Assembly (NCBI GenBank): GCA_964486155.1
Contig: CAZAKQ010000002.1
Location: 1 to 62,153, forward strand
Source: an uncultured Candidatus Saccharibacteria bacterium
GTDB taxonomy: Bacteria; Patescibacteriota; Minisyncoccia; Phycocordibacterales; UBA12079
Direction: 5' to 3'
Length of the DNA stretch: 62,153 nucleotides
Shown here one piece after another: positions 7,612 through 61,945 of this stretch (position 1 is the first letter of the stretch; each line of letters begins with the position of its first letter). A program made the translations under genes and the position numbers. The notes beneath the pieces are model-generated. The model had not been told where the DNA came from, searched no databases, and was given only the letters and a program-made list of their open reading frames with translations.

Positions 7612-7881
7612 AATTATAAATAAGTTGAAAGTTTATAAAGTTAAAAGTTCTTTAAAAAATTTGCTCTGCAAATTTTTTACTTTATAAACTCTCTACTCAA
7701 TGATTAATTTTTAATTCTTACAATAATTTAGCTTTTCGATAAAGATCTTTTTGTAACTTATTTGATTCTGATACAGCATTTTTTATTATCTTTTTTTGAT
7801 TTCTAGAAGAAATAGAAGACCAACAAAAAGCTTTGTTTTTCGTTTTTCCTCTATCAAATATTTTTTTTATTGTTCTTGTTA

Positions 7882-31934: not shown

Positions 31935-32014
31935 TGATTCTTATATCTTATTTTATTTTAGGTTTTTTTGCAAAATGAAAACCAAAGTATATAACTTTAG
32001 TTTTGTTTAAATTT

Positions 32015-32220
32015 GCGCGATCGAAGGGACTTGGTCACTCTCGTGGATATTTATTTCGTGCTTTGCACTCATAAATATCTCACTCCCTTGACCTCCACTC
32101 GGCGATACGACTCTTTCGCTTCGCTACAGAGTCGGCTTCGCATCGCCTCGGTTCAAGTCCATCATCGCGCTAAAACAAAAGTCACCCAACACTATCGTAT
32201 TGGGTTCCTTTGTTTTATGC
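32015..32220 (-). other. tRNA-3'-end-associated structured module A (candidate ncRNA or miniature integrative element)
   Basis: The 20-nt sequence at 32015-32034 is identical to 32219-32238 (tRNA-Asp T-loop to 3' end). An inverted copy lies at 32151-32172. Hairpins at 32047-32080 and 32110-32134. Confidence 0.65.
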
Positions 32221-32295: not shown

Positions 32296-32344
32296 AATTT
32301 ATACTGCAATACTTTAACAAATTTTTATATTTTTCTCAATACTG

Positions 32345-32418
32345 TGTCGACGAATGGATTCGAACCATTGATCTGGCGCGTATGAGACGCCCGCTTTAAC
32401 CAACTAAGCTACGCCGAC
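32345..32418 (-). tRNA. tRNA-Met (anticodon CAU), elongator type or Ile2-type
   Basis: Acceptor gtcggcg/cgtcgac with a paired 1-72, anticodon loop ctCATac. Confidence 0.8.
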
Positions 32419-32507
32419 AATTAACCAATAATATAGCATATTTAGTTAAATAATTAAACACTCCTCCAAACAAAAACAACCCAATTGGGTTGTTTTTGTT
32501 TTACTTG

Positions 32508-32578
32508 TTGCGGGAGCCTGACTTGAACAGACACCTGGAGGTTATGAGCCTCCCGTGCAACCTTTACACCATCCCGCG
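32508..32578 (-). tRNA. tRNA-fMet (anticodon CAU), initiator-like
   Basis: C1-A72 mismatch (cgcggga / tcccgca), anticodon stem ggagg/cctcc, loop ctCATaa, T loop ttcaagt. Confidence 0.7.
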
Positions 32579-32790
32579 ATATACTATTTAGTTTTAAAAC
32601 AAATTTATTCTTGTAACTCATAACCAAAGGTTATGAGTCTATGGATCCTATCGCGTGCAACCTTTACACCATCCCGCGATATACTATTTAGTTTTAAAAC
32701 AAATTTATTCTTGTAACTCATAACCAAAGGTTATGAGTCTATGGATCCTATCGCGTGCAACCTTTACACCATCCCGCGATATATTTAGTT
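32554..32790. repeat. 100-bp tandem repeat, about 2.3 copies, each containing the 5' 25 nt of tRNA-fMet
   Basis: 32554-32653 is identical to 32654-32753. A third partial copy starts at 32754 and has a 3-nt deletion. Confidence 0.9.
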
Positions 32791-33050
32791 AGTTAGATAT
32801 TAGGTAATTAGGGAAAAATTGCTTTGCAATTTTCATTACCTTCTTAAAAACTCTAAACTCTTTTTCAACGCTTAAAATATACAGTAAAAACACTCAAAAA
32901 GCAAGCAAAAACTGTCTTTAAATGAAAATTTCAACAACTCAAGTCGTTGAGCCGTTGAAACATTTAATGGCTTTAAATAAAGCTAGAATTCATTAATTTT
33001 TAATTTAGCATTTTTAATTTTTAATTTGAAATATTTTGTAAAAATATTTC

Positions 33051-33638
33051 TTAGATATATTGAAATTCTTCAAATACAGTTTTATATAAACCAACAGCTC
33101 TTTTTGCTGTTCTTTGTGTTAAAAGAGAATCAGAACCTTCATGAGCTACTTGATTTCTTATTTTATGAGCTTCCCAAGCATTATCAATTGTCGTAAAATC
33201 ACTTTTTTCAACTTGTTTCAATTTTTCTCCTATACCTTCGCCCACGTATCCCATTTTAGTAATCATTTCATCTAAAATTACATCAGCATCTAAAATAGCC
33301 ATTCTCCATTCTGCCTGAGAATCAGAATTAACATAGCGCACAATTTTTTCCCATCTTTCATTTTTAATTTCAACAAATTCAGAATCTCCAGCTGAAGAAA
33401 CAACCGTATCAAATATTTCTGAATCTTTTTGTGCCACAGGTTTCATTTTATACCGAACATATAAAATTCCAATCAACAAAACAACTGAAATTAAAAAAGA
33501 ATAAAACATAATAAAAGACCAATTATCATAATATATATTCCACAATCTAATAGGATTAAAATAATAAAATAAACCTTTTATTATAAGATAAATCCAATAA
33601 TATATTTGTTCAATATTTAAAAAATCAACATATTCCAT
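33051..33638 (-). CDS. membrane-anchored protein with a HEPN-like (DUF4145-like) C-terminal domain
   Basis: N-terminal TM segments. C-terminal AHKIRNQVAHEG contains an R-x4-H motif. Confidence 0.5.
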   Translation of the reverse strand: MEYVDFLNIEQIYYWIYLIIKGLFYYFNPIRLWNIYYDNWSFIMFYSFLISVVLLIGILYVRYKMKPVAQKDSEIFDTVVSSAGDSEFVEIKNERWEKIVRYVNSDSQAEWRMAILDADVILDEMITKMGYVGEGIGEKLKQVEKSDFTTIDNAWEAHKIRNQVAHEGSDSLLTQRTAKRAVGLYKTVFEEFQYI

Positions 33639-57411: not shown

Positions 57412-57641
57412 AAAACCAAAGCTATCTGCTTTGGTTTTAAGTATTTTAAATTCAGGACTCGGTCCCCAGTTCTAAGTTCAGACTTCGTCCTTCGGAACTC
57501 GTCTTCACTAAGAACTCTTGACCTCGCTCAGTCGTATTTCCCTTCACTTCGTTACGGGAAATTTACTCCTTCGTTTCGAGTCCTGCCACACGCTAAAATA
57601 CTAAAAACCAAAACTAAACGCTTTGGTTTTAAGTATTTTAG
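57412..57641 (-). other. tRNA-3'-end-associated structured module B
   Basis: Inverted copy of the tRNA-Ile 3' end at 57577-57593. Hairpin at 57536-57562. CTTGACCTC at 57517-57525. Distal direct copy of the T-loop segment plus terminator hairpin at 57412-57461. Confidence 0.6.
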
Positions 57642-57714
57642 TGCGTGTGCCAGGACTCGAACCTGGGACCACAGAGGTATAAGCTCTGCGCTCTACCAAC
57701 TGAGCTACACACGC
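57642..57714 (-). tRNA. tRNA-Ile (anticodon UAU)
   Basis: Acceptor gcgtgtg/cacacgc, anticodon stem cagag/ctctg, loop ctTATac, T arm ccagg-ttcgagt-cctgg. Confidence 0.85.
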
Positions 57715-61338: not shown

Positions 61339-61752
61339 GGGAGTGACAGGCTTCGATAAATAAATTCTTTTTAAATATGCAAAGAAAGCTGAATTAACTT
61401 TCAAACTGATTCAACTAGATAAGTGCAGACTTAACTAAGAAAGCAGGGAGAACGGTTTCACCTTACTTCACTGCTCCAGCTTTGGCATTCGCTTAATTTT
61501 TTAAACGAAAAGACCAATTATCGCAATTAGCGACTGGTGTCATATAGATGAATTTCTAAATAATCTATACCGGCATAATAATTTTAGAATATAGAAATTT
61601 AATTTTTTCGCCAAATTTCCGAAACTCAGAAAATCGAGACTATAAGGTTTTGTTTATTTCTTACTTATTTTCTTTAAACTGAAAAATAATCTAACTTTGT
61701 AGAATTATTTAAAAACTTTATTTACACGAGAGTTCGATTCTCTCCACTTCCA
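61339..61752 (+). ncRNA. ssrA: tmRNA (SsrA)
   Basis: 5' gggagtg pairs with 3' cacttcc, including a G3-U70 wobble. Conserved ggcttcga near the 5' end. Tag frame ends ...APALAFA-TAA. T arm gagag-ttcgatt-ctctc. Confidence 0.85.
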
Positions 61753-61945
61753 CAATAAAATAAAGAACAGGCTCTAATGCCTGTTTTTTGTTTTATCTGC
61801 ATGGAAACAGAGAAGATAATCGAAAGACGGAAGAAAATCCGAGATTTTCTGAGTCCGGGCAGGAGCCACTTAATAAAATATAAGTGAGTTTACGAACGAA
61901 ATATTTTATCTTAGTGAGCTGACGCCGATTCTCTCCACTTCCACA
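61753..61945 (+). other. tmRNA-3'-end-associated structured module C
   Basis: The 20-nt sequence at 61926-61945 is identical to 61735-61754 (tmRNA T-loop to 3' end). A terminator at 61766-61795 is followed by a degenerate inverted copy and an AT-stem hairpin similar to module A. Confidence 0.6.
61766..61795 (+). terminator. rho-independent terminator of ssrA
   Basis: aacaggc-tctaat-gcctgtt followed by ttttg. Confidence 0.7.

Follow-up and report, generated by a model that had tools for sequence, protein, structure and literature searches.

The tyrT locus of E. coli carries tRNA-linked repeats of 178 bp (RtT RNA, Rfam RF00391), which contain a piece of the tRNA and are co-transcribed. SegB, one of the free-standing GIY-YIG endonucleases of T4-like phages, has DNA-binding parts besides its catalytic domain. 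This enzyme cuts inside tRNA genes, and the breaks followed by homologous recombination give rise to an unstable tandem segmental amplification (PMC2330249; PMC13096335). In fungal mitochondria, mobile endonuclease ORFs (mORFs) carry a duplicate of the gene end while the native end is left as a pseudo-copy, examples being atp6 of Allomyces macrogynus and atp6, atp9, cox2 and nad3 of Glomus (PMC3630166). Finally, tandem arrays of trnF(GAA) pseudogenes have been described in plastids upstream of the functional trnF gene (PMC3786074).

The locus described here belongs to an uncultured Candidatus Saccharibacteria bacterium and lies in a window of 62,153 nt, this being the whole stretch of DNA that was analysed. 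Truncated copies of the 5′ part of the initiator tRNA gene are arranged there in tandem upstream of the intact gene, and small GIY-YIG cassettes were found at other tRNA genes. As in the case of SegB, a GIY-YIG gene is placed among tRNA genes. However, the host of SegB is a phage, whereas the CPR cassettes are cellular, encode UPF0213-like proteins of 81–88 aa with the catalytic domain only, have at their border a second copy of a tRNA gene's 5′ part, and contain an ORF overlapping the tRNA; the array of the window, in turn, has no ORF left. With the fungal mORFs they share that the endonuclease ORF travels with a part of its target gene and that the copy restores a working gene, but the mORFs duplicate the 3′ (C-terminal) end of protein genes, whereas in these bacteria a tRNA gene has its 5′ part duplicated, and an ORF-less tandem amplification would have come later. 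The plastid trnF arrays also consist of head-to-tail truncated tRNA copies beside a working gene with a copy number that varies among lineages; unlike the array of the window, they have neither a nuclease cassette nor a conserved hairpin made of an inverted anticodon arm, and they belong to a different domain of life. The repeats of E. coli tyrT are likewise in tandem beside a tRNA and contain a piece of it, but they lie downstream and hold its 3′ end, whereas those of the window lie upstream and hold its 5′ part. Each ingredient of the system has a precedent, namely the arrays of tRNA pseudo-copies, the GIY-YIG genes in tRNA clusters and the mORFs with a duplicate gene end. No description was found of their combination, in which cellular tRNA genes are overlapped by tiny GIY-YIG ORFs, the tRNA 5′ part is duplicated and apparent ORF-less tandem remnants lie in the leader of the initiator tRNA; the literature searched on GIY-YIG or homing endonucleases at tRNA genes of CPR bacteria and on tandem initiator-tRNA pseudogenes gave no account of such an arrangement.

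Analysis with Tandem Repeats Finder identified a perfect tandem repeat at 32554–32783, with a period of 100, 2.3 copies and 100% of matches. In agreement with the initial annotation, both a repeat search and whole-genome BLAST showed that 32554–32653 is identical to 32654–32753 and that a third partial copy (32754–32790) follows with 93% identity and a gap of 3 nt. BLAST gave no further copy of the unit elsewhere in the 657-kb, 29-contig genome. Read on the minus strand, the distal pseudo-unit is followed by the proximal one and this by the intact tRNA gene. The proximal unit begins with positions 1–29 of the tRNA (32650–32678, one mismatch), continues with an insert of 11 nt (TAGGATCCATA), which each pseudo-copy carries between tRNA positions 29 and 30, and with GACTCATAACC and the hairpin, and ends in an AT-rich tail of about 37 nt that adjoins the real gene. 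After the insert, each unit has GACTCATAACCT, equivalent to tRNA positions 30–41 with one mismatch, and no identity was detected beyond. The break of the copies at the anticodon loop and stem, pointed out in the initial annotation, is borne out. That annotation had also assigned to each unit the first 25 nt of the tRNA; positions 1–29 were found, followed by the insert and positions 30–41. The remnant of the anticodon region (AGGTTATGAGTCT in the units versus AGGTTATGAGCCT in the intact gene) is recast as a hairpin arm, as had been proposed, and this hairpin is perfect. On the other hand, the 5′ flank of about 60 nt attributed to each unit was not upheld, only the last ~17 nt of the unit tail, immediately upstream of the tRNA, being also found before the outermost copy. 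This flank marks the upstream limit of the duplicated segment. The intact gene was recognised by ARAGORN and by the Rfam tRNA model, and the pseudo-units were called neither by ARAGORN nor, at E ≤ 1, by Rfam tRNA; they have no T arm and no 3′ acceptor strand and do not form a complete cloverleaf. They did not match any other Rfam family at E ≤ 1, RtT included. Among the open reading frames at the locus, there was no integrase ORF near the array and no ORF in the tail of about 37 nt after the hairpin.

Features of the initiator tRNA locus in the window and intact cassettes at two other tRNA genes of the same genome.
Feature	Position	Strand	Basis or remarks
Terminator-like perfect 17-bp hairpin directly after tRNA-fMet	32468-32501	-	Sequence reading
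Intact initiator-type tRNA-Met(CAU), C1:A72 mismatch	32507/8-32578	-	ARAGORN; Rfam tRNA 53.4 bits, E 9e-10
Proximal pseudo-unit	32579-32678	-	Covariance model R1, 66.9 bits
Hairpin of proximal unit	32616-32638	-	Perfect, ACTCATAACC-AAA-GGTTATGAGT; predicted RNA fold with 11-bp stem
Distal pseudo-unit	32679-32778	-	100% identical to the proximal one; repeat and R1 searches
Hairpin of distal unit	32716-32738	-	Perfect, identical to that of the proximal unit
Distal-unit flank still matching the unit tails (aactaaata[gta]tat)	32779-32795	-	Match to 32790 with 3-nt gap
Palindromic leader element	32796-32845	-	Core AAAATTGCAAAGCAATTTT at 32815-32833; between promoter-like motif and array
Promoter-like motif TTGCTT-17 nt-TATATT	32904-32876	-	Inferred from sequence shared with relatives
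Terminator-like hairpin of the upstream gene (33051-33638)	32928-32961	-	Terminator scan
tRNA-Pro(UGG) cassette (L074)	C20:7195-7560		Truncated 5′ copy, 81-aa GIY-YIG ORF, intact tRNA
tRNA-Asn(GUU) cassette (L075)	C4:36559-36930		Truncated 5′ copy, 83-aa GIY-YIG ORF, intact tRNA

The 5′ arm of the hairpin is the remnant of the anticodon loop and its 3′ arm, which contains an ATG, is the antisense of that remnant, the stem having 10–11 bp. A homologous hairpin was kept in 25 of the 30 distinct units compared. One of its pairs switches between C-G and U-A (CAU/AUG versus UAU/AUA), a compensatory change, and in the hairpin of G005 two A-to-G changes keep G-U pairing on the sense strand only. This conservation with a compensatory pair hints at selection on the unit itself. 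The predicted fold of a single unit was not exceptional, with a z-score of only −1.6, and, against a strict requirement for the hairpin, three of the four units of G007 have been amplified despite having lost most of it. The fold predicted for the whole leader has three identical 5′ acceptor strands competing for one 3′ strand, so that an effect of the leader RNA on the maturation of the tRNA would be possible. The initial annotation had named, as a candidate, 5′-tRNA-half-like transcripts that would end in this hairpin. A role of the hairpin as terminator or attenuator was also considered and discarded, as it has no U-tract and was not flagged by the terminator scan.

The promoter-like motif of the locus was missed by a promoter scan with the E. 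coli consensus and was recognised in the sequence shared with the relatives, where it also lies upstream of tRNA-fMet; in the genomes G006, G009 and G016, which have no units, it directly adjoins this gene. The same E. coli-consensus scan gave no sigma-70-like site inside the units. The proposal that the array multiplies promoters is not supported by these data, because the conserved motif is outside the repeat and the units share only ~17 nt of flank. Likewise, the three copies of the tRNA promoter region that had been supposed in the array do not exist as such, the units being devoid of a promoter. The other end of the locus is given by the hairpin placed directly after tRNA-fMet. The consensus terminator scan flagged it on the plus strand only; however, it is a perfect palindrome and a T run follows on the strand of tRNA-fMet too, for which reason we read it as the putative terminator of this gene, and a like arrangement was seen in relatives. 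This disposition implies, from the sequence, a monocistronic unit made of promoter, leader array, tRNA and terminator. Located downstream of the promoter-like motif and ahead of the gene, the array would presumably be included in the transcript, as a leader of about 290 nt.

The palindromic element that precedes the array recurs throughout the genome in about 45 copies, mostly some 50–60 nt before start codons, and matches were also obtained in other contigs and genomes. Its palindrome (AAAAWYGCARAGCRWTTTT; 32815–32833, and also at 7675 and 42355 of the window) is often extended by aggaga/tctcct arms and by ctaa-rich or "agtcNaaagt" repeats. One copy of the element adjoins the first pseudo-tRNA of the array.

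Comparison with related genomes revealed that the array is not private to this strain, since homologous units precede tRNA-fMet elsewhere. They were present in 7 of the 15 relatives of the family in which the tRNA-fMet gene was found, in numbers ranging from one to four or more: two units in G004 (93 nt) and in G010 (101 nt), at least two in G008 (99 nt, with an N-gap inside the array), four in G007 (94–105 nt), one in G003 (96 nt) and one decayed unit in G005 (98 nt), the contig of G002 ending inside a unit. No unit was found before tRNA-fMet in G001, which belongs to the same genus, in G006 or in any of the genomes of genus g5. A covariance model (R1) was built from eight ORF-less units. Applied to a sample of 150 genomes from the order, it detected full-length units in 8 of them, each belonging to a different further family. 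Outside the order, units were found in three genomes, all of one genus of another order. In addition, 15 loci, each having between one and four units, came from pattern scans of contigs of metagenome-assembled genomes (MAGs) and metagenomes, several of these loci being the same record twice; no exact match to the unit of this strain was found in the metagenome contigs. The identity of the module across genera is 73–80% and the length of the unit remains constant at 93–108 nt even in distant families. The 5′ halves of outermost or single units are decayed, as in G005 and in the outer unit of locus L114, and show signs of neutral decay. Synteny with the relatives extends over the series tRNA-fMet, tRNA-Met, tRNA-Asp, tRNA-Thr, tRNA-Thr and includes the upstream gene. 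Since the one-unit state is common to three genera of the family, we infer that it is old; the step from one to two units would be very recent, because the two units of this genome are identical.

The possibility that the repeat, or its number of copies, had been made by the assembler had also to be considered. The genome is a draft of 29 contigs, and the arrays of related assemblies coincide with contig ends or carry N-gaps inside. However, homologous arrays are present in many independent assemblies, obtained with different assemblers and with flanks on both sides, and the likely error in such a locus is under-counting. An assembly artefact is consequently extremely improbable. Because a true one-unit array would not assemble as two, the two pseudo-units are best taken as a lower bound. 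Arrays of this kind break assemblies and can mislead the annotation of tRNA genes.

Three genomes of the same order (G164, G131 and G239) have a GIY-YIG ORF adjoining an intact tRNA-fMet gene. Upstream of the ORF, G164 and G131 also carry a truncated 5′ copy, which is absent from G239. The ORF of G164, the one fMet-cassette ORF that could be fully delimited, encodes 88 aa with a match to Pfam PF01541 (E 1.9e-17). It starts at the ATG of the 3′ arm of the hairpin, that is, at the antisense of the CAU anticodon, and runs 37 nt into the intact tRNA until the TAA of the anticodon loop, on which the ORFs of all three cassettes stop, G131 and G239 showing the same overlap of ORF and tRNA. The start of the fMet-cassette ORFs is within 0–6 nt of the break point. 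Furthermore, the pseudo-copy of G164 was matched by R1 (36 bits, E about 2e-7) and shares with the units of the window the insert after position 29, GACTCATAACC and GGTTATG. Pairing of the nuclease start codon with the pseudo-anticodon in the hairpin of G164 suggests a translational occlusion in the intact cassette, of which the hairpin of ORF-less units would be a relic.

The genome studied here contains two intact cassettes, at tRNA-Pro and tRNA-Asn, in both of which a GC hairpin (TCCGCC-N4-GGCGGA) forms part of the truncated 5′ copy. The ORF of the Asn cassette stops on a TAG inside the tRNA, and another copy of the GC hairpin together with fragments of tRNA-Pro was observed downstream of tRNA-Pro in C20. 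GIY-YIG ORFs of this type are present in 273 of 401 genomes of the order. Among the best 31 loci, 15 lie 3–44 nt upstream of a tRNA on the same strand (fMet, Gln, Asn, Val, Pro or Ser); ten of these 15 have flanking direct repeats derived from the tRNA 5′ part, and such a repeat occurs at only one of the 16 loci without tRNA. The cassette proteins (81–88 aa) consist of the GIY-YIG catalytic domain without any further domain, their nearest structures being UPF0213/YhbQ proteins (PDB 1zg2 and 1ywl); they are putative homing endonucleases. Partial copies are frequent in this genome, in which six tRNAs have upstream 5′ copies and five tRNA or tmRNA genes have downstream 3′ copies, that is, 11 of 36 genes.

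Given that this genome has two intact cassettes of like design and that ORF-bearing cassettes occur at tRNA-fMet in the order, we consider it probable that the array is an ORF-less and recently amplified remnant of a GIY-YIG cassette that colonises tRNA genes of CPR (Patescibacteria/Paceibacteria) bacteria, placed in a transcribed leader. This reading starts from the array itself, the homology of its units with those of other genera and the ORF-bearing cassettes of like design. A complete cassette would have three parts: a displaced, truncated 5′ copy of the tRNA on the original promoter, ending at about position 40 and altered by a short insert or hairpin; a stand-alone GIY-YIG ORF of 81–88 aa starting a few bases past the break; and a regenerated intact tRNA gene, into which the last codons of the ORF are read. 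The units of the window would keep the first part, the hairpin with its ATG and the AT-rich tail, the ORF having gone. Accordant with this are the position of the array, whose truncated 5′ part ends in the anticodon arm directly upstream of the intact tRNA, and its left junction, with the insert after about position 29, GACTCATAACC and GGTTATG as in the fMet cassettes. A GIY-YIG ORF between pseudo-copy and gene is not present in the window. To look for residual ORF sequence, 15 unit tails were compared with the three cassette ORFs by local alignment against shuffles and all p values were above 0.14; strings resembling SxKNK and EKY..SLK in the tails were likewise dropped as ORF remnants, their alignments being not significant against shuffled controls. 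Since the tails have no significant similarity to ORF DNA, it is only from the shared junction architecture that the loss of the ORF is deduced.

According to the proposed sequence of events, a nuclease ORF accompanied by a tRNA 5′ part would have displaced the 5′ part of the resident tRNA-fMet gene, which was left on its promoter as a pseudo-copy, in the manner of the fungal mORFs (PMC3630166), and the ORF would have been lost later. Three genera of the family would then have inherited the remnant, whose copy number would shift by unequal recombination or by replication slippage involving the 30-nt repeats; the two resident GIY-YIG nucleases could possibly stimulate these changes by making breaks in trans, as is known of SegB (PMC2330249; PMC13096335). 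Being part of the transcribed leader, the array would be cut away by RNase P, the enzyme that trims the 5′ leaders of tRNAs, as the tRNA matures, and would have no required function. Several findings count against this reading. The constant length of the units is easier to reconcile with one old ORF-less form, or with a constraint on length, than with many independent deletions; among the fMet units, those without an ORF are commoner than those with one; the cassette of G239 has no upstream 5′ copy; and the hairpin is kept with a compensatory pair and G-U-compatible changes. Moreover, the nucleases are tiny, UPF0213/YhbQ-like and without a DNA-binding domain, their homing activity being putative.

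A first rival explanation is a functional leader RNA module in which the truncated 5′ half and a hairpin sequestering a CAU-like sequence act in the precursor transcript. Such a module might gate RNase P, compete for the 3′ strand of the acceptor or titrate a factor that binds the initiator tRNA, the number of copies tuning the effect. In its favour, the units lie between a conserved promoter-like motif and the gene and persist across genera, at the identity given above, in a streamlined genome of 0.66 Mb; the hairpin, in most units and with the paired changes described, and the predicted competition of three 5′ strands for one acceptor strand point in the same direction. However, the module is patchy and dispensable, being absent from G001, G006, genus g5 and about 94% of the sampled order, its copy number goes from one to four or more, and the decay of 5′ halves in outer or single units, the amplified G007 units lacking most of the hairpin and the modest z-score of the single-unit fold also count against it. 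We regard this function as rather unlikely; a role of the leader and a mobile origin are, in any case, compatible.

The array could also derive from a plain local tandem duplication of the tRNA segment from −17 to +43, by an ancient slipped-strand or unequal-crossover event without any mobile element, followed by neutral drift and by changes in copy number like those of the plastid trnF pseudogene arrays, in which case the GIY-YIG ORFs would be secondary settlers. The units are in fact perfectly tandem and identical, their number differs among relatives, the tails contain neither an ORF nor a detectable remnant of it, and the trnF arrays provide a precedent (PMC3786074). Nevertheless, the layout of truncated 5′ copy, ORF and intact gene recurs at many different tRNAs, and secondary settlement can hardly explain that in three genomes the ORFs start 0–6 nt from the fMet break and have the TAA of the anticodon loop as their in-frame stop. 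The six upstream 5′ copies and five downstream 3′ copies of this genome are far above what plain slippage would give, and sequence foreign to the tRNA, namely the insert and the inverted anticodon arm, is shared by units of different orders. A plain duplication is thus improbable. The anticodon arm is a classical crossover sublocation of tyrosine integrases that target tRNA genes. The initial annotation had suggested scars of repeated site-specific recombination at the anticodon loop. With attL/attR-type repeats left by an integrative element, both the end of the homology in the anticodon arm and the palindromic hairpin, which resembles a core site, would agree. However, it is the 5′ part and not the 3′ part that is duplicated, the repeats are 100 bp apart with neither an island nor an integrase, relatives show synteny of the upstream gene and its terminator as well as of the promoter-like motif and the tRNAs downstream, and conservative recombination leaves no scars. 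Integrase scars are therefore very unlikely, and a GIY-YIG cassette that displaces the resident 5′ part and is then followed by tandem amplification fits instead.

Beyond the remnant reading, we put forward as a speculation, to which we attach little confidence, that the units belong, as non-autonomous elements, to a mobile system of CPR bacteria not described so far, in which tiny GIY-YIG nucleases with the catalytic domain only, perhaps recognising hairpins instead of sequence, colonise the 5′ parts of tRNA genes, and that the units are maintained and amplified in trans by the resident nucleases and, as leader elements, modulate the maturation of the initiator tRNA. The intact cassettes would be self-limiting in that their start codon is paired with the pseudo-anticodon and their stop codon lies inside the tRNA, so that processing by RNase P would strip the nuclease mRNA of its stop codon.

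At this locus, a single-copy and essential initiator tRNA gene of a 0.66-Mb genome appears to tolerate a leader with parasitic DNA that can expand. On a wider scale, the data suggest that the tRNA loci of CPR bacteria have been shaped to a major extent by partial gene duplications driven by nucleases, because tRNA-overlapping ORFs with 5′ duplicates are found, such ORFs occur in about two thirds of the sampled order and 11 of the 36 genes of this genome have partial copies. If true, gene-end replacement by mobile endonuclease ORFs and SegB-type amplification would be extended to cellular tRNA genes.

Other tRNA loci of this genome also presented partial copies. ORF-less truncated 5′ copies were observed 117–167 nt upstream of tRNA-Phe in C3 (54485–54558), tRNA-Thr(UGU) in C4 (16025–16098) and tRNA-Ser(UGA) in C22 (37–124); the spacers are structured and some of them hold antisense tRNA segments. 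Copies of the 3′ end were located 146–411 nt downstream of tRNA-Asp (window 32014–32040), the tmRNA (61339–61753), tRNA-Cys in C3 and tRNA-Ser(GGA) in C4. Inserts of 700–830 bp were found in related loci, between tRNA-fMet and tRNA-Met in L005 and L006 and between tRNA-Met and tRNA-Asp in L007, L009, L011 and L012. Those of the first two contain an ORF (about 225 aa) whose product has a helix-turn-helix motif, and the product of the other four is an endonuclease of about 220 aa with a double LAGLIDADG motif, the L009 protein matching Pfam LAGLIDADG_3 and LAGLIDADG_1 and the L007, L011 and L012 proteins resembling it. The tRNA cluster of the window has neither of these inserts. Additionally, L005 (96–406, G004) carries between two tRNA-Thr genes an insert of 311 nt without Rfam match at E ≤ 0.01 and with 50% G+C, the genome having about 27%. 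Apart from the initiator, the draft yielded a single tRNA(CAU), at 32344–32418, and a tRNA-Ile with the anticodon UAU, uncommon in bacteria, is encoded at 57641–57714 of the window.
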